From sequence record PZ239914.1: a stretch of 44,852 nucleotides of DNA; one strand, given 5' to 3'. The stretch's first letter is position 1, and each line of letters begins with the position of its first letter. Below the pieces are notes generated by a model that was not told the origin of the DNA, ran no database searches, and saw nothing but the letters and a program-made list of their open reading frames with translations. This stretch comes from a phage. Positions 12,412-43,918 of this stretch are shown here, one piece after another. The position numbers and the translations under genes were made by a program.

Positions 12412-15054
12412 TCATCGTTTGTAAAGTACACCACCCGGTTTCGTCGCCTTCACGATCTCGGCCTTGACCGACTCGGTGATTTGCTTTCCGAACGCCTGCG
12501 CGGTGCGCGGGTCTGGACCGCTAACACTGGTATCCGTCTTACCGGTCCCCATGTTAACGTTGGTCGTTACAATCATCCCCCCGCCTACACCGGCAGCGGC
12601 AACGCCCAGTTTCCCGTCTGGCCCGCGCTTCAGTGGCATGATGGCTTCGGGTCCGGCCTCACCCATCAATCCTGCGCCCTTAGCGAACGCCTGGACGCCA
12701 TAACTGAAAAAGGTGGGCTGGCTTACCACTTGCCCCGAATAGGCCGCGAGGTTGCCCCCTGCGTACGCTCCGCCGTCCGCATTCTTAGTGAGGCCGGAAA
12801 AGATAGCGCCGAACAATCCGTTTTTGCCGCCGTCGCCACCGAAAGCGCTAACGATGGATTTGAACGCCTGCGAGGTAGCCAGCTTTATTAATTCGCTCAG
12901 AATGGACTTAACCATATCTTTTGCGTTCAGCTTGCCTGTCTCGAAAAACTCGTTCATCGTGTCCTGCATAGCGCCGAACGTGAATTTTGTGAGTGACGTC
13001 ATCTGCGTATAGCCGTTACCCATTTCATCAACGCTATCCTTAAGCCCGCGGCTGAAGCCATCCCATAGCGAGGCGTTAGCACCGGTCTGTGCTTCCTGCA
13101 CTTCGCGCAGCTTAGACACCGCCAGGTCAATATCGGTATCGCTAGCGCCCACCCGCTTAAGGCGGTCAATCAGCTGCAATTCTTCGCGCAGGTTAGCCGC
13201 TTCGCGAGTGGAAAGCGCATAGCCCGCAGCGGTGGCTTTTAGCTCGGCGTTCTGGTTCTTAACGAAGGCGTCGATCTGCGCGTGCGCCTTGACCTGCTTC
13301 TCTTTCGCGTCCAGCAATTTGGCTTCTTCGACGATCTGCTCGCGTACTTCCTTCACGCGTCCGAATTCGACCATCTGCTGCTTTTCTGCTGCCGTTAGTG
13401 CTCTTTCTTTGCTTGCTGCGATTAACTGCTCATTATCCGCGATCAGCTTGTTTAGGGCCGCCTGCGCGCGTTGCGTGCGGGTCTGCGTCGATGCGTTGGC
13501 TTCGATCTGCTTTCCAGACTCACGAAGCTGGGCTAATTCGCTTCGCGCGACTTCCAGCATTTTCAGCCCGGCATCGACTCGAACAGCGGCGGCCTTCTTC
13601 GGGGCGGGGTCTTTGTAACGCTCGTTTACCTGCTTCACCGCCTCGGCAAGCTCTTTCTCGTCAATCACGCCGCGCTTATTAAGCAAATTGAGGCGGGCGA
13701 TCTCGTCGGCTCGCCTCTTCGCGTTGGTTGCGTACTCCTTCTCGAACGCGGCGCGGTCGCGGGCGGTGCGGTTGGCCTCTTCGTTCGCCTTTGCTGCTTC
13801 GTCCGCGGCACTTGCGTTGTCTCGCTCGGCACGGTTACGCAGGGTGAGCGACGCCACTACTTTTTCCTGGGCTACCAGTTCGCTGTAAAGCATGTTAATA
13901 CGCGCTTTCTGCGCTTCGGTCATCACCCCACCGGCAGCGTTTACCGCTTTCATCTCGGCATAGTAAGCCGTGGTCAGTCGCTGCAATGATTCACGCGCTT
14001 TCATCTCTGACTCATTCGAGGACTGCGCGCGTCCAACATCCAGGATGGCATCCCACATAGATTTAGCTGCCGATGTAACGACGTTCATCGACCGCTCAAG
14101 CGTACCCATGTTGGACTTAATATCGTTGGTCATAGTGGTGAACGACGCCGCGGCGGTTTTGTTAGCCAATGCAACCGCGTCTGTCTCGCGACCCATATCC
14201 ACAAGCGACTGCACCTGCTGGATCTGCGCTTCGTTTACGACGTGATACTTATCCGCCAATGCTCGCAAGCCGCCTACCGGGTCGGTTGACAGCTTCGCCA
14301 CCGCCGCGACCACATCCTCGACCGGCTGGCTGGACACCTTCGCAAAGTCATTCACCACTTTCGCCAGCGTGCCGAAGTCCGCACCCGCTTTCACACCAGC
14401 CGCCGCCAGCGCCTGGATTGTGTCACGCGTCTTGCGGAACGACCCACCCATGCGCTCGGCGTTCTCGGATAGCACCAGGATCTGGTTTGCCGTCAGGCCG
14501 GAAATGTTACCGGAAAGTGCCAGCGTCTTGTTAAGCGCGGCGACCTGGTTCTCTGCGCGGGACGTAATTGCCACGCCCACGCCTAACGTTGCCGTTACGG
14601 CGGCAAGGCCGATCCCTACTGGGCCGAGGAAGCCAGCAACATAACGCAGCGTGTTACCCAGTCCGCCGAATGCCCCAGTTAGCTGCGGTAACTGCTGAAG
14701 CATGACGCGGTGGACCGGCATCCCCATCTCAAGCGTAACTGCGATATCCTGTAACTGGAATGCGGCGTTACGCGAGGCAAAGCCCAGGTTTTTGGTCGAC
14801 ATGCCTAACCGGTTTGCAAGTCGCTCCTGTTTCGTCATACCGTCGGCGGCGCGCTGCGATTCGTTCGCCAGCTTCTCCATTCCGCCCGCGGCGTCACTCG
14901 TCACCTTTTTGGATTTGCCGAGTGTGTCGTTTAATTTCTTAACCTTGTTTTCTGTGTTCTCGGATTTCTGTGCGAATGAATCAAGCACAGTATTCGCCGT
15001 TCTGATTTGTGCAACATCCGCCTTTAGCGTGATGCCTGCTGCTTGATCTGCCAT
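12412..15054 (-). CDS. tail tape measure protein
   Basis: 880 aa, Ala/Gln/Lys-rich helical; Gly-rich hydrophobic segments; position between G-T and M. Confidence 0.85.
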   Translation of the reverse strand: MADQAAGITLKADVAQIRTANTVLDSFAQKSENTENKVKKLNDTLGKSKKVTSDAAGGMEKLANESQRAADGMTKQERLANRLGMSTKNLGFASRNAAFQLQDIAVTLEMGMPVHRVMLQQLPQLTGAFGGLGNTLRYVAGFLGPVGIGLAAVTATLGVGVAITSRAENQVAALNKTLALSGNISGLTANQILVLSENAERMGGSFRKTRDTIQALAAAGVKAGADFGTLAKVVNDFAKVSSQPVEDVVAAVAKLSTDPVGGLRALADKYHVVNEAQIQQVQSLVDMGRETDAVALANKTAAASFTTMTNDIKSNMGTLERSMNVVTSAAKSMWDAILDVGRAQSSNESEMKARESLQRLTTAYYAEMKAVNAAGGVMTEAQKARINMLYSELVAQEKVVASLTLRNRAERDNASAADEAAKANEEANRTARDRAAFEKEYATNAKRRADEIARLNLLNKRGVIDEKELAEAVKQVNERYKDPAPKKAAAVRVDAGLKMLEVARSELAQLRESGKQIEANASTQTRTQRAQAALNKLIADNEQLIAASKERALTAAEKQQMVEFGRVKEVREQIVEEAKLLDAKEKQVKAHAQIDAFVKNQNAELKATAAGYALSTREAANLREELQLIDRLKRVGASDTDIDLAVSKLREVQEAQTGANASLWDGFSRGLKDSVDEMGNGYTQMTSLTKFTFGAMQDTMNEFFETGKLNAKDMVKSILSELIKLATSQAFKSIVSAFGGDGGKNGLFGAIFSGLTKNADGGAYAGGNLAAYSGQVVSQPTFFSYGVQAFAKGAGLMGEAGPEAIMPLKRGPDGKLGVAAAGVGGGMIVTTNVNMGTGKTDTSVSGPDPRTAQAFGKQITESVKAEIVKATKPGGVLYKR

Positions 15055-15117
15055 TATGCAGTCCCCTTTTTTATGCAGTTGCCGGTTGACATTGTATCAG
15101 CGAATTTAAAACAAACC

Positions 15118-15291
15118 TTATGCAGTCTCAGACGAGGGGGGCCGTTGACCCCCGTCTAGTCTGAAAGACTGGGCTTTGTCCCGCTTGTCCCGATCGGCTG
15201 AAAACCGCGGCAGCACTGGCGGGGACGTGGTGCTGTCCCGCTTTGTCCCGCTCCTTGTTTGTCCCGCTTTCTGTCCCGCTCAGTTTATGCA
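15118..15291. repeat. iteron-rich noncoding repeat element, copy A
   Basis: About 174 bp, roughly 85% identical to 32339-32512; starts TTATGCAGTCTCAGACGAGGGGGGCC with nested hairpins, then six direct TGTCCCGCT-type units, ends AGTTTATGCA. Confidence 0.8.
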
Positions 15292-15439
15292 CGAAATACG
15301 AATAGGTATGCACATTTGTGGGGTGGGACAAAACGGGACGTCCCGCTTGTCCCGCTTTTAGATTATGCAATGGTAGTGATTAGATATGCGGTTTTGCAGG
15401 GGCGGGACAAAACGGGACGCCCCGATCAGTCCCGCTTCA
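15292..15439. repeat. additional direct and inverted GTCCCGC/GGGAC iterons extending copy A
   Basis: GGGACAAAACGGGAC at 15325-15339 and 15405-15419 (inverted) plus direct GTCCCGC units at 15340, 15349 and 15430. Confidence 0.7.
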
Positions 15440-15763
15440 TTATGCTGGGTTCTGCTGCGCCATCTCATCAAGCGCGATTCGTTCCATTAGCTTGATATCT
15501 TTAAACGCTCGCTGCTCGTTTTCTACACCGTGCATCTTAAATAACCACTCCAGCACGCCGTAGTCGATGCCGTATGCGCCACCAAATCCTGTGCGCCATT
15601 GCGTGGAGCAATCTGTGAAGACTGCGACTACCTTCGCGTTGTCGGGCCATAGCGCAACAGGCGGACAAACATCTTCGGGGGCCGCGCCCCATAAACTTGC
15701 GGCTAAATCTTCGGAGGGTGGCGGCGGGCCATAAAAGCGTCGCGCCGCCTCAATTAGTTTTTT
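15440..15763 (-). CDS. tail assembly chaperone T-like extension, expressed by -1 frameshift as a G-T fusion
   Basis: 105 sense codons open in the -1 frame from the slip site to the TAA at 15440-15442; no ATG-initiated ORF of 60 aa or more; -1 frame closed by TGA just upstream. Confidence 0.65.
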   Translation of the reverse strand, partial: KKLIEAARRFYGPPPPSEDLAASLWGAAPEDVCPPVALWPDNAKVVAVFTDCSTQWRTGFGGAYGIDYGVLEWLFKMHGVENEQRAFKDIKLMERIALDEMAQQNPA

Positions 15764-16116
15764 TCACGCAACCCCATCAGTTCGAGATAGTACGACGTGT
15801 GGAACACACCGAACGCGCGTGGATAGTTGACCACCAGGCGGCGGACGTTCTCCGCGTTAAATTCGTCCGGCAGATTCCAGCCTTCTGCGACGTGCATGAT
15901 GGCCTCGACCATAACGTTAAAGCCGTCCGGGTCATTGTCGTCATATTCCGATAGCTTTCGTTCAGTTTCCTGCATGGTTTGCGAAAATTCGTCGATCGGG
16001 CGGTGGCGGACGGTAAACGTCATCTTGCCCGGCTCGTTCTCACCAGGGCGCGGAATCTCAATCGGCAGCTTAAAGGTTGGCTTAGGGTCAAGTGTGAAGA
16101 GTGGTGCTTTAGCCAT
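15754..16116 (-). CDS. tail assembly chaperone (lambda G-like)
   Basis: 120 aa from the ATG at 16116 (GGAGA RBS); between the major tail gene and the tape measure; ends in the slippery site. Confidence 0.7.
   Translation of the reverse strand: MAKAPLFTLDPKPTFKLPIEIPRPGENEPGKMTFTVRHRPIDEFSQTMQETERKLSEYDDNDPDGFNVMVEAIMHVAEGWNLPDEFNAENVRRLVVNYPRAFGVFHTSYYLELMGLREKN
15757..15763 (-). other. programmed -1 ribosomal frameshift heptamer A_AAA_AAC
   Basis: Minus-strand GAA AAA AAC TAA at the end of the G-like ORF; textbook X_XXY_YYZ site two codons before the stop. Confidence 0.65.
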
Positions 16117-16131
16117 TGTAGTATTCTCCAA

Positions 16132-16185: not shown

Positions 16186-16911
16186 TCAAGACAACGCCTC
16201 GACCAGATCCTTACGGTAGATAACCATATCAGACTGCATGGTCAGAGTGGACTGCACCGTTTCCACGTTGTTTACTTCAGCGGAAGGAATCTTCTGGAAA
16301 GATACCTTTGCCGGGTAAATACGGATCTCACCTTTGCCGCTTGCTGCCGCTGGGTTAGTGAACTTAATCACAGTGGTTTTCTGTGTGTCGTCCAGGTCTT
16401 CCAGGATTGGGCGGATCGGGTCTTCTTCGTCGTGGGTGAAAGTGTAAGTCTGTACCAACGGGTTTTTCGTGGTGTTCAGACTGATTGCGGTGTTCACCTG
16501 CAACGGCTGGAAGGTAGTCGTCTGCTGGTCGCCACCAGACACGGCAACGTTAGTAATGAAAGGGAAGTCGATAAAGCTCGACACCTTCACCACTTCGCCC
16601 GGAGTGCCTACGCTGAAAGCGCCGGTCGGGTATTTTGTGACGTCTTCGGTGTCGAAGCGCGCCAGCGTAACGTCGTTGGTGTCCACTTTACCCACGATGA
16701 ATGCGCGGTTAAGCGCTCGGACCCACGGGGTTTTAGTGAACATAACCACGTCGCCAACAACCAGGCCATGCGAAGCCGCACAGGTAATTACGCAACCTTG
16801 CGTAAGGTCGGAGATCGACGCGGCGGCGTTGGTAGCTGCCGTAACAGCGATGCCGCTGCCCAGTACGGACCCAATCTGGACGCTGGACCCGTTAGGAAGT
16901 TGATAACCCAT
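16186..16911 (-). CDS. major tail protein (by position)
   Basis: 241 aa, CAGGAG RBS; upstream of G/G-T and followed by a terminator, as expected for a highly expressed tail tube gene. Confidence 0.6.
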   Translation of the reverse strand: MGYQLPNGSSVQIGSVLGSGIAVTAATNAAASISDLTQGCVITCAASHGLVVGDVVMFTKTPWVRALNRAFIVGKVDTNDVTLARFDTEDVTKYPTGAFSVGTPGEVVKVSSFIDFPFITNVAVSGGDQQTTTFQPLQVNTAISLNTTKNPLVQTYTFTHDEEDPIRPILEDLDDTQKTTVIKFTNPAAASGKGEIRIYPAKVSFQKIPSAEVNNVETVQSTLTMQSDMVIYRKDLVEALS

Positions 16912-25248: not shown

Positions 25249-26634
25249 TTAGTAGAAGTCTACAGTTGGAACAACGGCGATTGGGCGAATCACTGGGAAC
25301 AGGTGCGCAATTGGATAGCCCGCGGCATCGTTCATGTGGTCCACACCGGCGGTTTTATCCGGCTCGCCTTTCTTCAGGTCGTAAACCTGCTGTTCCAGAC
25401 ATTTCGCTAGTGTAGGGCATTTATCCAGGTTGACAAAATACTGGCGCACACCCTTCGAGTTGCACATCATCGTATTCATCGCGATCAATCGGTCTTTCAC
25501 AGGAGGGTTAACGCTGTCGTACTCCACCTCGAAGCCCGCGTCTTCCAGTTGCGCGATATCGGACGACGACGCGTTGACCGTCTTGCGGGATTTGCCACTG
25601 CTATCCGGGTAAACGACGACCCTACCGGCGGCACAATGTTCCGGGTAGCGCTCTTCGATCGCCTCAATCATAGCCGGGGTGTCAAACAGGTCCACAAATT
25701 CATCCACCGCGTGAATCTCGTCTCGGAACTCCTTGTTCTCGGTTACTCGCTGCCGTCTGACGTACACAACCGCCGCCATCTTCGTGACGTTAAAGTCCAT
25801 ACCGATAATCAGCGTGTCTTCCGGCTGCACTTCTTCGGTGCTGGCGTTCTCCTCACGGTTGAACATCTTGTATACTGCGCCCGACGTAAGGTTAACAAAC
25901 ATGCCGTTAAGGTACGCATCAATCAGGTTAGCCGGGTACTGGCTGCGCAGCGTGTCGATGAAGTCTGCCGGTAGGTGGTGGTTGTCGGTGGTCTTCGCCC
26001 GGATCAAACGTTTTTGGCTATCCTTCTCCACTTCGAAAATTTGGTACATCGCCCGGAAGCCTTCAGGCGTGGACACGATGACGAACTGGCGTACAAAGCC
26101 CGCACGCAGACGACCGAGCAATTTGTGATATGCCGCCATTGCGACGTCTTGTTTCGTGGTATCGAACTCGTCGGCGACAATCCACGCGGCGTTGACCCCG
26201 ATTAGGCGGGTATAGTTCTCCATTGATTCACAGATAACGCGGGTCCATTTGCCTTTCACAAGCACGTTATAGATCTTGTCCTGCTTATTGAACTTCCACC
26301 GGAAGCCCGCCTCGTCAAACGCCTTTTCCAATTCCGGATACATGATTTTAACCAGGAGTGGGATGGTCGGCTCGGTCACGATGCCGTCATGGCCCGGGTT
26401 CAGGGTTAAAAGCTGGATGACCTTACGCGCTGCGACCCACGACTTTCCACCACCGAAGCCGGAACACAGGCCGAGGATTTTAGTCTTTGTGTCGCGCAGT
26501 AGTTCGACCTGGTGCGGTAGGCAATCAGGCTGGTAAAGACGCACCGCCTGCGCAACGCGTGTCGGGCGTGGTGGTCGGTTGCGCTTTGCGATCGCGCGTT
26601 CCAGTGCGCGGTGTTCTGCCGCATAGTTACGCAT
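25249..26634 (-). CDS. terminase large subunit
   Basis: P-loop LGLCSGFGGGKSWVAARK, acidic Walker-B-like ADEFD, C-terminal nuclease-like region. Confidence 0.9.
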   Translation of the reverse strand: MRNYAAEHRALERAIAKRNRPPRPTRVAQAVRLYQPDCLPHQVELLRDTKTKILGLCSGFGGGKSWVAARKVIQLLTLNPGHDGIVTEPTIPLLVKIMYPELEKAFDEAGFRWKFNKQDKIYNVLVKGKWTRVICESMENYTRLIGVNAAWIVADEFDTTKQDVAMAAYHKLLGRLRAGFVRQFVIVSTPEGFRAMYQIFEVEKDSQKRLIRAKTTDNHHLPADFIDTLRSQYPANLIDAYLNGMFVNLTSGAVYKMFNREENASTEEVQPEDTLIIGMDFNVTKMAAVVYVRRQRVTENKEFRDEIHAVDEFVDLFDTPAMIEAIEERYPEHCAAGRVVVYPDSSGKSRKTVNASSSDIAQLEDAGFEVEYDSVNPPVKDRLIAMNTMMCNSKGVRQYFVNLDKCPTLAKCLEQQVYDLKKGEPDKTAGVDHMNDAAGYPIAHLFPVIRPIAVVPTVDFY

Positions 26635-27185
26635 TATTCGCCCTGGCCTTTGCCGGTAGGTTCCACAACGACGTCGCCGTTATCATCTTCGTCGTCATCC
26701 AGCGGCACATCGTCCCGGACGCCGTGGTTGGCTTTAAGCAGGAACGTAGCGAAGCCTGCCGCGATGGTCACGCCGCCAGCTTCCATCAGGAAAGTTTTCT
26801 GCAACTCCATAGCGTCCGCCATCGCCTCGGCGAACTCCTCATGCGCACGCGCCCAGCGATACAGGCAAGCTACGCCCACGCCGATTTCCGCGGCAAATCG
26901 ACCGAAGGTTGGCATTTTGTTGCGGGGGATTACTTGCGCAGCGCCTTTATCGGAGTAGTTTACCTGCCAGGCGTCGGCATCGGCAAAATAGCGGCGAAGC
27001 TGGTCGCAGTAAACGGATCGGTAGTCAGTAGGGCGTCCACATTTGCCGCCTTTACGGCGCTTTCCGTACTCGATTTCAGGTCCGAGATTGGTATGCTCGG
27101 TTTGCTCGCCTGGTTTACGGCGCGGGGTAACTGCCACTCGTCCGTCCAGTTTAGCGCGACGGCCCTTAACTTTGATTTCTGCCAT
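26634..27185 (-). CDS. terminase small subunit (alternative start at 27206)
   Basis: HTH-like PTFGRFAAEIGVGVACLYRWARA; acidic C-terminal tail; stop overlaps the TerL start. Confidence 0.6.
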   Translation of the reverse strand: MAEIKVKGRRAKLDGRVAVTPRRKPGEQTEHTNLGPEIEYGKRRKGGKCGRPTDYRSVYCDQLRRYFADADAWQVNYSDKGAAQVIPRNKMPTFGRFAAEIGVGVACLYRWARAHEEFAEAMADAMELQKTFLMEAGGVTIAAGFATFLLKANHGVRDDVPLDDDEDDNGDVVVEPTGKGQGE

Positions 27186-27248
27186 GATATAAGCCCTTTT
27201 GTGCATATGCGCCGACCATCGGCAACATAAGAGACGGCCCTGCCATCT

Positions 27249-31799: not shown

Positions 31800-32126
31800 T
31801 TATTTCGCAAGCTGGGCGAATAGTTCGCGCTGGGCTTTAATCCGGGCGACGTTAGTCACTGCCGTCTCGCCGATCCCGAAGCGATACGCCAGGCGCTCAC
31901 GGGCAAATGCCAGCGCGTAGTCCTGGATAGCGTTCGCCAACGGCTGGATCTCTTCCATAGTGTCTAAGCGGTCCTCCAGCATACAGGCGATGGCCTGCTG
32001 CGTGACGCGAACAACGGACCACGCTGCCGATAGTCTTTCGATCGCTTCCGCTCCCTCACTGGCGAACTCCGCCGCTTCTTGCGCCGCCGCCATAGCCATT
32101 GCGTAATTCCAGATAATCGCTTTCAT
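31800..32126 (-). CDS. hypothetical protein (108 aa)
   Basis: GGAGG RBS; preceded by the candidate promoter at 32155-32183. Confidence 0.5.
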   Translation of the reverse strand: MKAIIWNYAMAMAAAQEAAEFASEGAEAIERLSAAWSVVRVTQQAIACMLEDRLDTMEEIQPLANAIQDYALAFARERLAYRFGIGETAVTNVARIKAQRELFAQLAK

Positions 32127-32338: not shown

Positions 32339-32512
32339 TTATGCAGTCTCAGACGAGGGGGGCCATTGACCCCCGTCTAGTCTGAAAGACTGGTAGTTGT
32401 CCCGCTTGTCCCGCTCCCCTCCAGGCCGCGTCCTCCGGGGCGGGACGGGGGTGCTGTCCCGTTTTGTCCCGCCTCTTGTTTGTCCCGCTTTTTGTCCCGC
32501 TTAGTTTATGCA
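32339..32512. repeat. iteron-rich noncoding repeat element, copy B
   Basis: Same 5' hairpin module and six TGTCCCGCT-type iterons as copy A, with a divergent central spacer; between the primase end and the 31800-32126 gene. Confidence 0.8.
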
Positions 32513-32586
32513 ATAAAACTGCATAACTATTCACTATATTCACACTACACGGCAACCAATACGACCAGATAAAAACACTCAAAATG

Positions 32587-32669
32587 GCAACCAATGCGCG
32601 CAAAATTTAATCTTTTAGCGATATGGGAATTCCCATATCGGCAACCAATACGCGCAAAATTTAATCTTT
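32587..32669. repeat. 30-bp direct repeats flanking a 20-bp perfect palindrome at the primase 3' end
   Basis: GGCAACCAAT(G/A)CGCGCAAAATTTAATCTTT at 32587-32616 and 32640-32669; palindrome GATATGGGAATTCCCATATC at 32620-32639; second repeat contains the primase stop codon. Confidence 0.7.
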
Positions 32670-34925
32670 CAGGTCGTCATCGGTCGCAGAAAGCGTGATG
32701 GGTATATTCGTTTTTATGACGATATTAGACGACCCATAGATGGCCCCGGTGTGCGGGTCTGTATAAAAACCTAACACTCCGCGCTCCACCATATCGTCAA
32801 TGGCCTTCGTCGATGTGCCACCTTTCGCTAGTCCAGCCTGGCGGACGATTGCCGATTTACTGAATCCGGTATGATCCGGGTTATCTTCCATCAGTTTTTC
32901 CAGTGCCGCATAAAGCACTTTCTCTTTTTCGTTGCGCGGGCCTGCGGCGTTCTCATCCTTAACTGCGGCTTTTCCAGCGGACTTCGCCTGCTCAATGGCG
33001 AACGGTGCCAGGGCGACCGGTACGAGGTAAAGAGTCTCGTCGCGTGGCGTGGATGCAATCGGCTTGACGTCCCAGCCGGCAACCACATCGCCGAAGTCCG
33101 GCCCGGTGCTGGTGGACTGGTGTGCCTCGAACGCTTCGGACTTGCGGAGATCCACCTTAACCTTGCACTTGAGTAGTACGAAGCCGCGCGGCGCTTGCTT
33201 GATGCCGTTACGCGCCTTTTCGTGATACAGGTTCAATTGGCCGGGCTGATTGTCGTCCGGTTGCTCCAGGAAGAACGCAGAATCAACAGCACCATGCAGC
33301 GCGCCGGACCCGCGGGGGGTTCTGCTGCCGTTTGCGCCCTTCGCCGGGTGATGGATGACGCCCGCGCTGCCGCCTGTATTTTCCGCAATGGCCTTCAGCG
33401 CTTTGACCACTTCGCCCATATCGCTGGCGTTGTTCTCGTCGAACGGTTTAGCATCGGCGGACCGCAACGCTACAGTCTGGTTGAGTGAGTCGAACGCCAC
33501 CAGGCCAACCGGTTCGCCGTTAGCGGTGCGGTTGATGAAGCTGATAACTTCACGCAATCCTGACTTGCTGGTGATATCCCAGCCGCGTGATTGCAGATCG
33601 ATAATGTGCAGCTTGTCCAGGTCGTGCTCGTATTTAATCTGCAATGCTTCCTTACGCTGGTTGGAGGCTTCGCCGCCTTCCGCGTCGAAATAGAAGTTAT
33701 GGCACTGGACGACCTTCGCACCGCCAAACGGGATACCGGCAGATACGGACGCCATCTGGCCCAGCACATAGAACGATTTACCGATGTTCGACTCACCGGC
33801 AAGATACCAGGTCGATTTGAAGTTGACCAGGCCTTCTATGATCGGGTCGTGCTTACTGAACAGTGCGACCGGTTCGTTGTCCAGGTCGGCATCGGTACAT
33901 ACGCCGTACTCGTCGCCATCTCCGACCGCATCGACGATATGCTCATAGCACGATTCCACCTCCTCGTCGTCCAGTCCAGGGAGGATGGCGGCGATTTGCT
34001 TACGTGACATGTTGTGCGGTTCGACGTTCAGGTGGTCCGGGATCCCTATAAGACGTAGCGCCAGGTGCTGGTGTCTGTTCAGTTCCGAGCAACACTCGTT
34101 GCCGGTGTGCATACACTTGAAACGGATCTCGCCATCCTTAACCATGATAGCCGTCGACCCTTCGCCGCTGTGCAGGTGTTCGTTAGGGCACGGCACTTCA
34201 TAGCCCCGACCGGACGACAGTGGCTCGAATCCTGCCTGGAAGCACCAATCCAGAATGCCGTCAGCCACACCATCATCGCCCTGGGTTAGTTCGCGGCGTA
34301 CTTCCTCTTTTTCCATTCCCAGCTTATCAGCCAGGCGAAGCAGACGACGGACACGGGCGCGCTTTCCGTAATGGCATTTAATAACAGACTGCTGGTGTGG
34401 CAGGTACATTAGGCGGTTAGTGTCTTTCGTGCAATCGTCGAAGTCCACATCTGACAGGCCCAGTTGGTGTAATAGTGCATACTGGACGCGGCCCAGGTCT
34501 TCAGCCGGTACAGGCTTGTCAGTGAGCACCAGGAAACGAGCGCAACGCGTGCCGCCTTTCAGCGGGTGGCGGTCGCCGGTAGTGGTGTGAAATACATGTT
34601 CCAGTCCCGCGTCGATGAAAGCCTTACGGCAGCGGCGCAGGGTGCGGGTGTCGGTGCGGTCAATATCGAAGAACAGGATCGAGCGGTCCACAGCACTGGT
34701 CTTGCGGCGTAAGCCGTCACTGGTATACGCCACGATGCCATCGGCCTTACGCTTGCGTCGCGCATACTCGGCTTTATCTTCCGTTTTGTTGATATGCACC
34801 GAGGAGATTTCTTTCGCATCATTGATAAATTCGAAAAACTCTTCGGTAGTCATCTGGAAGTTTTCCGCCCGGGCTTTTTCGCCTTTTTTAGCGGGTCGTG
34901 TTACAGCGAATTTAATTAAGCTCAT
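32661..34925 (-). CDS. DNA primase / P-loop helicase fusion protein
   Basis: 754 aa; Walker A GESNIGKS; Cys/His-rich zinc-binding-like segment CPNEHLHSGEGSTAIMVKDGEIRFKCMHTGNECC. Confidence 0.75.
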   Translation of the reverse strand: MSLIKFAVTRPAKKGEKARAENFQMTTEEFFEFINDAKEISSVHINKTEDKAEYARRKRKADGIVAYTSDGLRRKTSAVDRSILFFDIDRTDTRTLRRCRKAFIDAGLEHVFHTTTGDRHPLKGGTRCARFLVLTDKPVPAEDLGRVQYALLHQLGLSDVDFDDCTKDTNRLMYLPHQQSVIKCHYGKRARVRRLLRLADKLGMEKEEVRRELTQGDDGVADGILDWCFQAGFEPLSSGRGYEVPCPNEHLHSGEGSTAIMVKDGEIRFKCMHTGNECCSELNRHQHLALRLIGIPDHLNVEPHNMSRKQIAAILPGLDDEEVESCYEHIVDAVGDGDEYGVCTDADLDNEPVALFSKHDPIIEGLVNFKSTWYLAGESNIGKSFYVLGQMASVSAGIPFGGAKVVQCHNFYFDAEGGEASNQRKEALQIKYEHDLDKLHIIDLQSRGWDITSKSGLREVISFINRTANGEPVGLVAFDSLNQTVALRSADAKPFDENNASDMGEVVKALKAIAENTGGSAGVIHHPAKGANGSRTPRGSGALHGAVDSAFFLEQPDDNQPGQLNLYHEKARNGIKQAPRGFVLLKCKVKVDLRKSEAFEAHQSTSTGPDFGDVVAGWDVKPIASTPRDETLYLVPVALAPFAIEQAKSAGKAAVKDENAAGPRNEKEKVLYAALEKLMEDNPDHTGFSKSAIVRQAGLAKGGTSTKAIDDMVERGVLGFYTDPHTGAIYGSSNIVIKTNIPITLSATDDDLKD

Positions 34926-34935
34926 TGCCGTGGCC

Positions 34936-35265
34936 TTACTTAGAAGTTTTATTATTGCGTACCCAGGAGCGCACTGTGCTCTGATTAATTCCGGTCAACT
35001 CGGCGATCATTGCCCAGGACTTTCCCTCATTGCGCAAACGGATAACCTGCTTTTTGTATTCTTCCATTTCTTCATTGTGTTTTTGCAGCTTGCTCGCTGC
35101 CGTACCGTTGAGCAATTCCAGCCTGGCGCGTAATTCTTTTTCGGCACTGCGCAGACGTTCGATTTCAAATAACACCGCCCCCACGGCATCTGTATAAGCC
35201 CATGACCGGCTTGTCTCACTGCAAACAGTCTTCGTTAACATTTCGATTGCGTCGTTTACATTCAT
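34936..35265 (-). CDS. HTH DNA-binding protein (109 aa)
   Basis: C-terminal HTH-like KSWAMIAELTGINQSTVRSWV; coiled-coil N-terminus; GAGGG RBS; first gene of the leftward arm. Confidence 0.55.
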   Translation of the reverse strand: MNVNDAIEMLTKTVCSETSRSWAYTDAVGAVLFEIERLRSAEKELRARLELLNGTAASKLQKHNEEMEEYKKQVIRLRNEGKSWAMIAELTGINQSTVRSWVRNNKTSK

Positions 35266-35471: not shown

Positions 35472-35667
35472 TCACTCCGTCGACAGGATGCAGGACGCAA
35501 ACTGGAGAGGGGCAACGCAGGGGCCGGATCGAAGTGTCAGGATTCCCAACCGTGATTATATAACCCGGTCCACTACCCGAACGGGAGAACGCGCAACCGG
35601 GCAATATGTTAAGGCCACCGACGAAGTTAACTGCCGACACCTAAACTTAACCAATCGGAGATATACC

Positions 35668-36183
35668 ATGTTTGAGCAAATCGTAAACCTGATCACTCGC
35701 GGCGTAGTAGCACTGGAAACCATCGCTAAACATTATGAAACCGTTGGCGCTGCCGTTGGTAAGCAGGAAGACAAGAAGCCGTCTAAGGCCAAAAAAGAAG
35801 TTGTCGAAGATGACGACAATGACGCCGAAGACGAAAAACCGGCTAAATCTAAAAAAGCCCCGGCGAAAGGCAAGGCCAAAAAAGAAGTCGTAGAAGATGA
35901 CGACGATGATGCCGAAGACGAAAAACCGGCTAAATCTAAAAAAGCCCCGGCGAAAGGCAAAGGTAAGAAAGATGCCGATCCGCTGGCGGAGATGCGCGAC
36001 GAAATCAAACAATATGCCGCTATTATTGCCGGTGGCGATGACGACGACGCGAACGACGAATTCGACGACCTGCTGGAATCGTTCGAGATCAAATCAATCG
36101 CCAAGCTGGAAGATGACGACGTCGAAGACTTCCACACAGAGTTGAAAGAGATCGTCGAAACCTATTTCGAACTGGAAGATTAA
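35668..36183 (+). CDS. highly acidic tandem-repeat protein (171 aa), candidate DNA mimic
   Basis: ATG with GGAGA RBS; two 29-aa repeats KKEVVEDDD(N/D)DAEDEKPAKSKKAPAKGK; Asp/Glu-rich C-terminus; first gene after the strong promoter. Confidence 0.6.
   Translation: MFEQIVNLITRGVVALETIAKHYETVGAAVGKQEDKKPSKAKKEVVEDDDNDAEDEKPAKSKKAPAKGKAKKEVVEDDDDDAEDEKPAKSKKAPAKGKGKKDADPLAEMRDEIKQYAAIIAGGDDDDANDEFDDLLESFEIKSIAKLEDDDVEDFHTELKEIVETYFELED
35791..35964 (+). repeat. 2 x 87-bp in-frame tandem direct repeat
   Basis: 35791-35877 and 35878-35964 are near-identical. Confidence 0.8.
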
Positions 36184-38426: not shown

Positions 38427-39212
38427 ATGGCTAAAGTCAACCTGAAAAATGTGCGCGTATGCTTCCTGAAAATCTGGGAACGTGATACCCCTAAACAGGA
38501 TGGGCAAAAACCGGCATACCGTGCCGTGATTCTTCTTGATAAAGAAGATCCGCAGGTGGACAAAGTGGAAGCGGCAGCGCGCGCAGTGCTTACCGATAAG
38601 CTGAAATCCGAGAAGAATGCCGATAAGTGGATGGACCGCCACTACGCCCAGGATTCGAAGGAATGCGCAGTCCGCGACGGCGACGAGCGCGACGAAGTGA
38701 CCGAAGAATTCGAAGGCATGTTGTATATCAACGCCAAATCGTTCAAACAGCCTATCATTCAAACGTCACTCGGCGAGAAGCAGACTGAACAAGGTCTGAC
38801 CGTAGAAGGTGACGAGATCGAAGGCCAGGAGATCTACTCAGGTTGTTATTGCAACGTGTCCCTTGATATTTGGGCGTGGAACAACACCAACGGCAAGGGA
38901 CTCGGTGCTGGCTTGCTGGGTTTACGCTTCCGTGATGACGGTGAAGCCTTCGGCGGTGGCGGGTCTTCTTGCTCCGATGAAGACCTGGACAACGACGACG
39001 AAGACGAAGCACCGCGCAAGGCTAAGAAGTCAAAACGTCGTGATGACGATGATGAAGATGACAAGCCGCGCAAGTCCGAGAAATCCAAGCGCCGCGATGA
39101 CGACGACGATGAGGAAGATGAAAAACCTCGCAAACGCCGCAAGTCCCGCGATGACGAAGATGAGGACGAAGACGACGAAGACGAAGCACCACGTAAACGT
39201 CGCCGCCGTTAA
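38427..39212 (+). CDS. phage ssDNA-binding protein-like (DUF2815-like) with alternating acidic/basic C-terminal repeats
   Basis: Start at the ATG with GAGGA RBS; family call from recalled N-terminal similarity and position next to the nuclease; C-terminal DDDEDEAPRKAKKSKRR-type repeats. Confidence 0.55.
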   Translation: MAKVNLKNVRVCFLKIWERDTPKQDGQKPAYRAVILLDKEDPQVDKVEAAARAVLTDKLKSEKNADKWMDRHYAQDSKECAVRDGDERDEVTEEFEGMLYINAKSFKQPIIQTSLGEKQTEQGLTVEGDEIEGQEIYSGCYCNVSLDIWAWNNTNGKGLGAGLLGLRFRDDGEAFGGGGSSCSDEDLDNDDEDEAPRKAKKSKRRDDDDEDDKPRKSEKSKRRDDDDDEEDEKPRKRRKSRDDEDEDEDDEDEAPRKRRRR

Positions 39213-42052: not shown

Positions 42053-42226
42053 ATGATTGAAGAAAAACGTTGTAGTAATTGCGGCTGCGTCAAGCCGCTG
42101 TCCCAGTTCCACAAATACACCGGTAAGACTGCGCGAAGTCCAGACGGTCATCGGGCCGAGTGCAAGTCGTGCCGCAATAAGAAAGAGCGCGAACGGCAGC
42201 GCCGCTATCGCGCAGAACAAGAATAA
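42053..42226 (+). CDS. zinc-ribbon protein (57 aa)
   Basis: CSNCGC...CKSC Cys pairs with a basic C-terminus; GAGGA RBS. Confidence 0.5.
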   Translation: MIEEKRCSNCGCVKPLSQFHKYTGKTARSPDGHRAECKSCRNKKERERQRRYRAEQE

Positions 42227-42233
42227 TCAATAC

Positions 42234-42256
42234 GGCGGGCCTGTCCCGCCATTTTT
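42234..42256 (+). terminator. intrinsic terminator
   Basis: GGCGGG-cctgt-CCCGCC followed by ATTTTT. Confidence 0.5.
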
Positions 42257-42264
42257 AGCGAGAC

Positions 42265-42489
42265 ATGACGATGAAAGAACATTACCGACTCACCAAGCTG
42301 GGAGAATGCAAACCAGGCGATCGCGTATGGTTTATCGCGGGCATGAACTACCCGCTGCCGTTGACGGTGTGCTGGCAGAAGTTTAATAGCTTCCGGGCTA
42401 CCGGTGTCCACATCGGACACGCCACCAACTACGACGCCACAAAGAGGAACTGGGATAGTGAAACCGAAGTCTGGAAAAAGGCGGAATAA
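42265..42489 (+). CDS. hypothetical protein (74 aa)
   Basis: ORF-track ORF; alternative ATG at 42271. Confidence 0.45.
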   Translation: MTMKEHYRLTKLGECKPGDRVWFIAGMNYPLPLTVCWQKFNSFRATGVHIGHATNYDATKRNWDSETEVWKKAE

Positions 42490-42493
42490 AGAA

Positions 42494-43918
42494 ATGGCAC
42501 GATTCCGACGCCGCGAATATCAGAAGTTGATTACCGCGTTCATCCTCAAGCATAAGCGATGTAATATCTGGGCGACAATGGGTTCCGGTAAAACCGGCGC
42601 GACAATGTGGGCGCTGAATAAAATGTTCCAGACGGGCATCCTATCCCACCAGGCGGACCGCGTACTGGTGCTGGCCCCGCTGCGCGTTGCATCCGGCACC
42701 TGGCCCCCGGAGCAAGAAAAATGGCGGTTCTCCTCCTTGCTGGTAGTAGACGGCACCGGGCCAGAGAAAGACCGCATAGCCGCGCTGGAGAGCGACGCTA
42801 ACGTGGTTTGTGTTAACTATGATGTGGTTGAGTGGCTGGTTGACTATTACGGCGATGCGTGGCCATTTACGGTCGTTGTTGCCGATGAATCCACTAAGCT
42901 GAAAGGCTACCGAAGCAAGCAAGGCAGTAAGCGCGCACGCGCACTGGCCGCGATTGCACATAAACACGTCAAGCGCTGGATTAACCTGACCGGCACACCC
43001 GCGCCAAATGGCTTGAAAGACTTATGGGGTCAGACGTGGTTTGTCGACGGCGGCGAACGCCTCGGCAGTAGCTATAAGGCATTTACCGATCGCTGGTTCA
43101 TTAGCAAGCCTGTTAAGCCTGGCAGCTTCTCTATGCAGCACGCCCCGCTAAAGAACTCCGAGAAAGAGATACAACAACGTCTGTCTGACGTGTCCCTAAC
43201 CGTTGACGCGGCTGAATACTTCGGATGTGACAAGCCAATCTATACGCCGGTTGTTGTGGACCTGCCGAAGAAAGCCCGCAAGATTTACGACCAGTTTGAA
43301 AGTGAGCTATTTGCCGAACTGGAAAGCGGAACAGTGGAGGCGGCGAACGCCGCGGCGAAGACAATTAAGTGCCTTCAGCTAGCTTCCGGCGCTGTGTATA
43401 AGGTAGACGAAGACGGGGAACGGACAGACGAGTGGGTGAAGATTCACGACGCTAAGCTGGACGCGCTGGAAAGTATCGTGGAGGAGTTGAACGGTGCACC
43501 GTTGCTCGTTGCGTACCAATACAAACATGACCTGGCTCGTCTTAAGAAGAAATTTCCACACGGCGTTGCGTTGGGTAAAGGTAAGCAGGGCAATAAGGAT
43601 ATAGAAGCGTGGAACAGAGGCGAGATCCCCATCATGTTTGCACACCCGGCATCGGCAGGCCACGGCCTTAACTTGCAGGACGGAGGACATCACCTGGCAA
43701 TCTTCTCCGATACCTGGAACTTTGAGCACTTTTCGCAGATCGTTGAACGTATCGGGCCGGTTCGCCAGATGCAAGCAGGACACCCCCGTCCGGTATTCGT
43801 CTACATTATCCAGGCGCGCGGGACTTTGGACGAATTGGTTGCCGAGCGCCGCGACAGTAAGCGAGATATCCAGGACGACTTGATGGAATACATGAAAGCT
43901 AAAAAGGCGCGCAAATGA
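42494..43918 (+). CDS. SNF2-family helicase/ATPase
   Basis: Walker A GSGKTG; DExx box VVADEST; C-terminal helicase-like region; start reassigned to the ATG at 42494. Confidence 0.85.
   Translation: MARFRRREYQKLITAFILKHKRCNIWATMGSGKTGATMWALNKMFQTGILSHQADRVLVLAPLRVASGTWPPEQEKWRFSSLLVVDGTGPEKDRIAALESDANVVCVNYDVVEWLVDYYGDAWPFTVVVADESTKLKGYRSKQGSKRARALAAIAHKHVKRWINLTGTPAPNGLKDLWGQTWFVDGGERLGSSYKAFTDRWFISKPVKPGSFSMQHAPLKNSEKEIQQRLSDVSLTVDAAEYFGCDKPIYTPVVVDLPKKARKIYDQFESELFAELESGTVEAANAAAKTIKCLQLASGAVYKVDEDGERTDEWVKIHDAKLDALESIVEELNGAPLLVAYQYKHDLARLKKKFPHGVALGKGKQGNKDIEAWNRGEIPIMFAHPASAGHGLNLQDGGHHLAIFSDTWNFEHFSQIVERIGPVRQMQAGHPRPVFVYIIQARGTLDELVAERRDSKRDIQDDLMEYMKAKKARK

Follow-up and report, generated by a model that had tools for sequence, protein, structure and literature searches.

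In P4, short iterons in both orientations are clustered at two sites kilobases apart, the origin ori and the site crr, which is required in cis. The initiators of P4 (alpha) and pRN1 (ORF904) are proteins in which primase, helicase and winged-helix domains are combined (PMC2777425), and the origin of pRN1 is a stem-loop located downstream of its own replication gene, which is essential and movable and is conserved in structure but not in sequence, an arrangement for which the authors note similar cases in bacteriophages (PMC4234260). In RSF1010, the iterons of RepC are found together with the hairpins ssiA and ssiB, each strand having a hexamer on the 5' side of its hairpin (PMC8567376). Dhillonviruses such as SECphi18 and the BASEL isolates (e.g., Oekolampad) are standard test phages for bacterial defence systems, and no description of their origin and initiation mechanism was found in the literature searched. 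Here, we analyze sequence record PZ239914.1 (44,852 nucleotides, hereafter the window), essentially a complete genome of a Dhillonvirus (HK578/SO-1-like coliphage), and in particular a non-coding element of its tail operon, region A (15055–15439), which separates the gene of the tail chaperone T from that of the tape measure protein (TMP), together with its counterpart, region B, located next to the gene of a primase-helicase. On balance, region A is probably a second copy of the phage's own candidate replication-origin module, of which region B is the primary one; the best reading is a putative iteron origin of the IncQ/P4 type in region B, accompanied in region A by a second origin or a site comparable to crr.

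The two regions share a 174-bp core that runs from TTATGCA to TTATGCA, and the complete match extends over 196 nt with 82% identity (15118–15313 and 32339–32534) at a distance of 17,221 bp, in agreement with the original prediction, made by a model from the letters and open reading frames (ORFs) of the window, that a second copy lies 17 kb away. The edge of the region B core (32534) is 127 nt from the stop codon of the primase-helicase gene, and this placement after the gene is conserved in at least five lineages; region A, 17 kb off, is tied to the gene only through its identity to region B. Relatives of the primase-helicase were gathered from annotated phages and from IMG/VR, and the DNA 3' of each gene was inspected. 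The layout of region B was also found after the stop codon in relatives with ~44% identity, namely Salmonella phage St162 and the IMG/VR loci L051, L073, L054, L057 and L071. It comprises, in order, a GTGAATAGTTATGCA box, usually in two copies and conserved in all the lineages with the module, three or four direct iterons, one or two inverted ones, two further direct ones, a 5-bp mini-hairpin with a bulged GC-rich hairpin, TTATTCATT or TGCATAA, and the promoter of the next gene. Since phages with ~44% identity carry the same layout at this site, the comparison of sequences indicates that the position of region B is the ancestral one and that the St162-like group has no second copy; in fact, all four GGGGGAGA iterons of St162 are at a single locus, with no second cluster. 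The module is not universal in the protein family, as neither the Kagunavirus loci (~34% identical helicase) nor six other loci with ~44% identity have an iteron module, and a terminator and a convergent gene are found 3' of their helicase genes.

The iteron itself changes with the lineage, being GCGGGACA in Dhillonvirus, GGGGGAGA in St162, L051 and L073, CGGACAA in L054 and L057, and CCGACA in L071, and this variation points to the protein that reads it. Among the St162-like primase-helicases, the first ~665 residues are 0.89–0.97 identical in every pair, whereas the last ~90 residues show an identity of 0.97–1.00 between phages with the same iteron and of 0.42–0.58 between phages with different iterons; the nucleotide identity dips only over the codons of this C-terminal domain and over the adjoining iteron block. 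Two other candidate readers were ruled out, since neither tracks the iteron: the Cro-like helix-turn-helix (HTH) protein encoded upstream is 94–98% identical in all these phages and does not covary with the iteron, and the small ORF between its gene and the helicase gene is unrelated in each phage or absent, St162 having one and L073 none although they share the iteron. As an observation in its own right, this slot holds an unrelated ORF of 76, 80 or 53 amino acids (aa), or none, in L031/L034 (= St162), L073, L054 and L071, is always followed by a conserved terminator, and looks like a moron-type variable slot. TerS and the 109-aa HTH protein (34936–35265), which the original prediction had named for binding assays, are probably not involved; the St162-like phages lack this HTH and keep the iteron module. 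The likely binder of the iterons is, instead, the C-terminal winged-helix domain of the primase-helicase, for which both the covariation with the iteron and a predicted DNA-binding fold are available.

The search of the primase-helicase sequence against the PDB gave marginal matches (RepA, E = 0.5), and for this reason fold prediction was applied. The N-terminal 345 residues are modelled as a primase of the archaeo-eukaryotic primase (AEP) type (predicted local distance difference test score, pLDDT, 86), and the best Foldseek matches are the PrimPol of cyanophage S-2L (1e-5) and the catalytic domain of RSF1010 RepB' with initiator DNA (3H25, 7e-4). The core of the protein, an AAA_25 helicase, belongs to the type of RSF1010 RepA, in agreement with the HHpred note of a depositor. 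The AlphaFold model of the C-terminal domain has the order helix-helix-helix-strand-strand (core pLDDT 77–88), and its top Foldseek matches in the PDB are all winged-helix proteins, among them MarR-family regulators, the winged helix of ORC2 and ScpB. A search with the C-terminal domain alone gave two fragments, and full-length homologues were used for the comparison.

In region A, the exact word GTCCCGC occurs eight times in direct orientation (15178, 15235, 15245, 15261, 15273, 15340, 15349 and 15429), which agrees with the at least eight direct units anticipated by the original prediction, and once inverted (15402). When one mismatch is allowed, the heptamer sites are 13 in 385 bp compared with ~1 expected, a density of short repeats far above chance as expected of an iteron cluster, and 7 in region B. 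In the whole window exact GTCCCGC is found 22 times, 15 of which are in regions A or B, and the other 7 compare with ~5.5 by chance. The spacings of the core iterons are 9 and then 10, 16 and 12 bp, and the order and spacing are the same in region B, whereas the two head-to-head quartets (Table 1) are an extra of region A. The two inverted units noticed previously, GGGACAAAACGGGAC at 15325–15339 and 15404–15418, are the left arms of these quartets. The repeated words described at the edges were also recovered: the 9-mer ACTGCATAA is present three times at the TMP-proximal edge, and its five copies in the window are all within regions A and B compared with ~0.3 expected, while further TTATGCA words of region A start at 15285 and 15363. 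The arrays adjoin short patches (~30–50 bp) of AT-rich DNA, as the unwinding regions of iteron origins do, with 63–70% AT in region A (15090–15119, 15280–15319 and 15360–15389) and 70–73% in region B (32500–32549), compared with 45% for the window. The word CGGCAGCA, present near both regions, was dropped as a shared element as it has 16 copies genome-wide.

Two further observations concern the surroundings of the region B core. At the palindrome of 32506–32526 and at the equivalent site of L002–L030, the Dhillonviruses differ in the spacer, which reads ATAAAAC in a part of them and GTTTTAT, the exact reverse complement, in the remainder, and such an inversion of a spacer between inverted arms is a signature of template switching at a hairpin or cruciform. 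Moreover, a 54-bp unit at 32586–32639, with one GGCAACCAAT motif and a perfect palindrome, GATATGGGAATTCCCATATC, is variably present among the relatives; together with 32640–32672, it makes up a tandem duplication.

The nested hairpins attributed to the 5' module of region A were confirmed by folding (15123–15171), with z-scores from –2.7 to –3.3 on either strand (–2.7 and –2.9 when folded as DNA), and the hexamer CAGTCT is found 5' of the hairpin on both strands. Among 16 distinct Dhillonvirus genomes, invariance amounts to 95% in the stems and to 14% in the 7-nt loop. In St162, L054, L071 and Edwardsiella phage eiAU the structure is kept and the sequence is different; the mini-hairpin is AGTCT/AGACT, TCATC/GATGA or CTCCT/AGGAG depending on the lineage, and the z-scores of the hairpins range from –2.3 to –4.6. 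In IMG/VR, the hairpin pattern matches only contigs of ~42.5–45 kb, most of which have a second match ~17 kb off, as in the window. When region A was sought in the lineage with 68% identity, contig 3300045988_050407 was matched by the hairpin pattern once, at its region B; this contig was not retrieved by a scan for TMP peptides, and a scan with an iteron-pair pattern was non-specific.

The hairpin module could also act as RNA, as a processing site, a stabiliser or an attenuator that sets the ratio of G/T to TMP and the 3' terminus of the helicase mRNA, with the iterons as incidental features. The two copies, in fact, are oriented alike with respect to transcription, compensatory changes between lineages are seen in the stems, with a loop free to vary, a T-G pair of L054 would be tolerated on the sense strand only, and the alternative pairing of CAGTCT with two copies of AGACT resembles the logic of attenuators. 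We consider this explanation improbable, however, as it accounts neither for the palindromic quartets nor for the presence of 13 iterons that covary with a DNA-binding domain, and as the quasi-palindrome folds equally well on both strands, as expected of a DNA element. Furthermore, a search of both strands of the whole window against Rfam 15 at the gathering score detected no RNA family, and the hairpin is followed by GAGACTGCATAAGG, with no U-tract, the canonical terminators of related phages looking different. Scans of regions A and B for intrinsic terminators gave none on the minus strand, and the matches on the plus strand, which is not the transcribed one, are iteron palindromes at chance level.

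How close this locus comes to the described systems can be evaluated from these elements. As in the oriV of RSF1010, iterons lie beside hairpins, here with putative initiation signals for both strands, the helicase is RepA-like, and RepB' with ssiA DNA is the second-best fold match of the primase. Unlike RSF1010, in which three functions are divided among RepB', RepA and RepC, a single polypeptide of 754 aa appears from the models to unite them; the iterons are of 7 bp, direct and inverted, rather than 3.5 repeats of 20 bp, the putative signals of the two strands overlap in one quasi-palindrome rather than forming two separate 40-nt repeats, and there are two copies per genome. As a possible signal of the ssi type, the hairpin is conserved in structure and has CAGTCT ahead of it on both strands, and the predicted fold of the primase domain resembles RepB'; its sequence has no similarity to ssiA or ssiB. 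The alpha protein of P4 is, like the present one, a single polypeptide with primase, helicase and C-terminal winged-helix domains in the same order, the winged helix of alpha being origin-binding, and the two clusters of the window, which share iteron, order and spacing, recall the two-site organization of P4. However, the primase of alpha is of the DnaG/Toprim type and its helicase belongs to SF3, whereas here they are of the AEP and RepA/RecA types, respectively; the P4 iteron is the octamer TGTTCACC, and its two sites are 4.5 kb apart, neither of them inside a structural operon. ORF904 of pRN1 (prim-pol, SF3 helicase and winged helix) has the same domain order, and its origin, a stem-loop, is likewise just 3' of the gene for the replication protein; unlike region B, it has no identified iterons, the stem-loop is of ~100 nt and the helicase is of another superfamily.

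Evidence on the maintenance of region A comes from eiAU, whose TMP is 45% identical and in which one of two paired regions follows the helicase/primase gene and the other is directly upstream of the TMP gene. The paired regions of eiAU have in common about eight CGCCC(C)G iterons, a 52-nt block (88% identity) and a bulged hairpin similar to that of Dhillonvirus, GAGGAGACGGGGGTG...CCACCCCTCGTCCTC; the linear record was assumed to be continuous across its ends, and without this assumption the 221 nt upstream of the TMP gene still hold iterons and hairpin. Regions A and B thus each follow the iteron of their own lineage and, therefore, both sites are maintained. This tracking at both sites is a prediction of selection on binding by one protein and is evidence against a duplicate in decay. 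All the Dhillonviruses examined and, with a different iteron, eiAU have the site between T and TMP filled, and it is therefore an old, maintained feature rather than a recent insertion. The description of region A as an inserted element is thus correct only in part; the element is absent from St162-like phages. In eiAU (L094, KF772233), the interval 42101–43000 comprises T, the canonical terminator AAAAAGCGGGGTAGCGACCCCGCTTTTTG, the opposite-strand 118-aa ORF P858_54, four promoter-type motifs, the iterons, the hairpin and TMP; this T-TMP junction is a larger insertion hotspot.

These data also bear on the idea that region A has no function and is a duplicate of the origin left over from illegitimate recombination at TTATGCA microhomology, or that it is a small mobile element. 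In both copies, a TTATGCA word is indeed present at either end of the 174-bp core, and the St162-like phages lack a second copy. Nevertheless, the element occupies the same site in all 16 of the Dhillonvirus genomes aligned, the mean column conservation is 0.996 for the hairpin stems and 0.93 for the iterons compared with 0.90–0.92 for the flanking coding sequence, and the eiAU counterpart has the iteron of its own lineage, all of which makes this origin of region A very improbable. A miniature inverted-repeat transposable element or another small mobile element was rejected, as the ends are direct TTATGCA words with no terminal inverted repeats, the element is at two fixed loci in all the genomes compared, no match was found in 5,426 complete Escherichia coli genomes and 72,556 plasmids, and IMG/VR holds no copy outside contigs of ~42.5–45 kb.

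Even less credit, bordering on none, can be given to region A as a pac or partition-type site for TerS or a ParB-like protein. Such sites typically have arrays of short repeats, direct as well as inverted, and the linear GenBank record of eiAU starts inside the counterpart region, but region A is 11 kb from terS (26634–27206), its iteron covaries with the C-terminus of the primase-helicase, none of the 14 ORFs scanned against family libraries is a partition gene, and the Dhillonvirus records are permuted at many points.

A different role is suggested by the extended –10-like word TGATACAAT, which, judging from its sequence, is a possible promoter for the TMP gene. Region A could be a transcription-control platform, in which the iterons are operators for the winged helix of the primase-helicase or for another regulator and, through this –10, time or insulate the expression of TMP and the distal tail genes with respect to G and T; region B would act likewise on the genes following the helicase. 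Initiator proteins commonly autoregulate, which counts in favour of such a role, as do the invariance of TGATACAAT at ~37 nt from the TMP start, the promoter-type GCAACCAAT motifs that flank region B, and the eiAU counterpart, which comes after the canonical terminator 3' of T and is accompanied by four promoter-type motifs of the GCAACCAA kind. On the other hand, a scan of regions A and B for two-hexamer sigma-70 promoters gave counts at chance level and did not report TGATACAAT, the terminator scans were equally at chance level and missed the element, the hairpin has no U-tract and GCAACCAAT is absent from region A in the window. Moreover, transcription control leaves unexplained the presence of the module beside the primase-helicase gene in every lineage and the conserved hairpin of the primase type, and it is compatible with origin function. 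As an explanation in place of an origin, we find it decidedly unlikely, though it deserves more weight than the alternatives considered above.

The motif just mentioned was also examined in the whole window. GCAACCAA(T) occurs 21 times compared with ~1.4 expected, mostly between the listed long ORFs and often in pairs; it flanks region B and is absent from region A. Its reverse complement, ATTGGTTGCA, includes the –35 hexamer of promoters resembling those of sigma-70, one of which, TTGCAT-N17-TAGATT, precedes the gene that starts at 32126, and analogous words are ATGTTGGCTGC, beside TTGCAA-N17-TAATAT, in St162-like phages and GCAACCAAC in eiAU. The motif is probably a promoter or operator word of the phage and is possibly read by the 109-aa HTH protein.

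Among the explanations listed in the original prediction, that of a protein-binding array tied to replication is thus favoured by the covariation and by the layout at the primase-helicase gene, whereas those of a mobile element and of a known RNA family are not. In the mechanism that we propose, the winged-helix domain would recognize the heptamers, GCGGGAC on the gene strand, whose spacing is close to one turn of the helix, and direct arrays and head-to-head quartets would concentrate and orient the helicase subunits, allowing hexamers to assemble and the adjacent AT-rich DNA to open. Once single-stranded, the GC-rich bulged quasi-palindrome would form hairpins, one per strand and both with CAGTCT in front, and these could signal to the AEP primase domain where to prime or load, a role played for RepB' by ssiA and ssiB in RSF1010. 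As for region A, it could be either a further origin or, like the crr of P4, an element that enhances initiation in cis, and it may also hold the promoter of the TMP gene.

Several points weigh against this origin reading. The literature searched gave no experimental data on replication, binding or priming in any Dhillonvirus. The turning point of the cumulative GC skew is at ~35–36 kb, in the region of the divergent promoters, and not at region A or B; the skew follows the direction of transcription and is uninformative about either region. Sites resembling the DnaA box TTATNCACA with up to one mismatch are at chance level in the whole window (32 compared with 34 expected), two of them being adjacent in region A and one in region B. 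The winged-helix matches are weak (E = 6e-3 to 0.3), and the corresponding domain of P4 alpha is outside the top 50. In L048, of the lineage with 68% identity, the iteron is unchanged and the C-terminal domain is 58% identical, and therefore the correspondence between domain and iteron is not one-to-one. The St162-like phages are single-site, so that the second copy is not required by such a replicon. Finally, a role of region A in the transcription of the TMP gene explains its fixed position equally well, and with the present data a role in tail-gene expression is inseparable from origin function.

A broader proposal, which goes well beyond the candidate origin and which we regard as rather unlikely to hold in full, is that a self-contained replicon is common to Dhillonvirus, Eiauvirus and the St162-like Salmonella phages, and that all three IncQ functions would be united in a single protein, whose winged helix would read the iterons as RepC does and which would also unwind DNA like RepA and prime like RepB' on a palindromic hairpin. 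The specificity of the replicon would reside in an exchangeable cassette, formed by the C-terminal domain and the adjacent iterons, that is swapped between phages otherwise ~90–97% identical. Dhillonvirus and Eiauvirus would have kept upstream of the TMP gene a second, co-evolving copy of the origin that both fires replication and gates the late tail genes, coupling the two processes.

The candidate origin reading would link a common family of phage primase-helicases to the replication logic of IncQ and P4. The maintenance of an origin copy within a tail operon would be unusual and, if the copy is functional, would be relevant to the coexistence of replication with late transcription in a genome of small size; regions A and B are also candidates to be left intact in phage engineering and a possible source of orthogonal replicon parts. 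The two loci had already been annotated in the GenBank record of SO-1 (GQ502199), whose genome is 94% identical, as repeat_region features. One, "region A," separates gp16 from the gene of the TMP, and the other, "region B," follows that of the helicase/primase; the notes speak of "direct, inverted and palindromic repeats" and of similarity of either region with the other, and go on with a remark that begins with "possible." They are the same two loci as here, the SO-1 entry being an annotation note alone, and the record of phage "rolling" also carries a repeat_region feature there. In the literature searched on SO-1, the HK578 group and Dhillonvirus origins and repeats, no paper analyzing either region, their binder, the covariation or the wider conservation was found, and the present analysis points to two sites of the origin type, a candidate reader domain and a set of natural swaps of specificity in St162-like phages.

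With regard to the gene context, Oekolampad, SECphi18, jat and SO-1 show 94–96% identity to the window over the 6 kb around region A, which itself has matches in 159 phage records. The gap of ~385 bp between T and TMP is where the original prediction had placed it, and its claim that no convincing ORF is present also stands, as the copies from the 16 Dhillonvirus genomes are separated by frameshifting indels (1 nt at 15066/67, 15143, 15199 and 15226, plus others of 10–13 nt) and no reading frame is consequently conserved across the region. The features of both loci are collected in Table 1.

Table 1. Position of regions A and B, of their component elements and of the genes and motifs discussed in the text (window coordinates).
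Feature	Position	Strand	Description
Tail tube protein gene	16186–16911	minus	
Chaperone G	15754–16131	minus	Phage_TAC_4
Chaperone T extension	ends at 15440	minus	DUF1799
Tape measure protein (TMP)	12412–15054	minus	Pfam TMP_2 and Tape_meas_lam_C
Region A, whole non-coding element	15055–15439 (385 bp)		between T stop (15440) and TMP start (15054)
Three ACTGCATAA words	starts 15054, 15071, 15118 (15054–15124)	minus	TMP-proximal edge
Extended –10-like TGATACAAT	15091–15099	minus	~37 nt upstream of TMP start; invariant in 16 distinct Dhillonvirus sequences
Hairpin module (quasi-palindrome)	15123–15171		CAGTCT, AGAC-GA-GGGGGG, 7-nt loop, CCCCC-GTCT, mini-hairpin AGTCT-GAA-AGACT
Core iteron array	15178–15279	plus	GTCCCGC at 15178, 15235, 15245, 15261, 15273; GTCCCGA at 15187; inverted degenerate GCGGGGAC at 15219–15226
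AT-rich patch	15283–15314		63–67% AT; holds TTATGCACG and GTATGCACA, each 8/9 to the DnaA box
Head-to-head iteron quartet 1	15323–15355		GTGGGAC, ACGGGAC / GTCCCGC, GTCCCGC; inverted repeat I1
Head-to-head iteron quartet 2	15402–15435		GCGGGAC, ACGGGAC / (GCCCCGA), GTCCCGC
Region B core	32339–32534		hairpin module 32344–32392; iterons 32399–32500; AT-rich palindrome TTATGCA-N7-TGCATAA and TATTCAC boxes 32506–32545
Primase-helicase, 754 aa	32661–34925	minus	AEP/RepB'-like N-terminus, RepA-like AAA_25 core, winged-helix C-terminus (Pfam, PHROG 3228)
Predicted winged-helix domain, residues 666–754, putative iteron reader	32664–32930	minus	AlphaFold2, Foldseek, covariation
GCAACCAA(T) motif	95, 112, 2010, 2022, 4918, 21013, 21027, 28841, 31595, 32149, 32180, 32271, 32552, 32587, 32641, 35456, 38347, 38363, 41989, 43835		

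Repeats of a different kind were also observed in the window, where acidic tandem repeats are present inside early genes at 35785–35958 and 38976–39196; one of them is a perfect-frame duplication of 87 nt, 95% identical, in the 231-aa ORF at 35488–36183.

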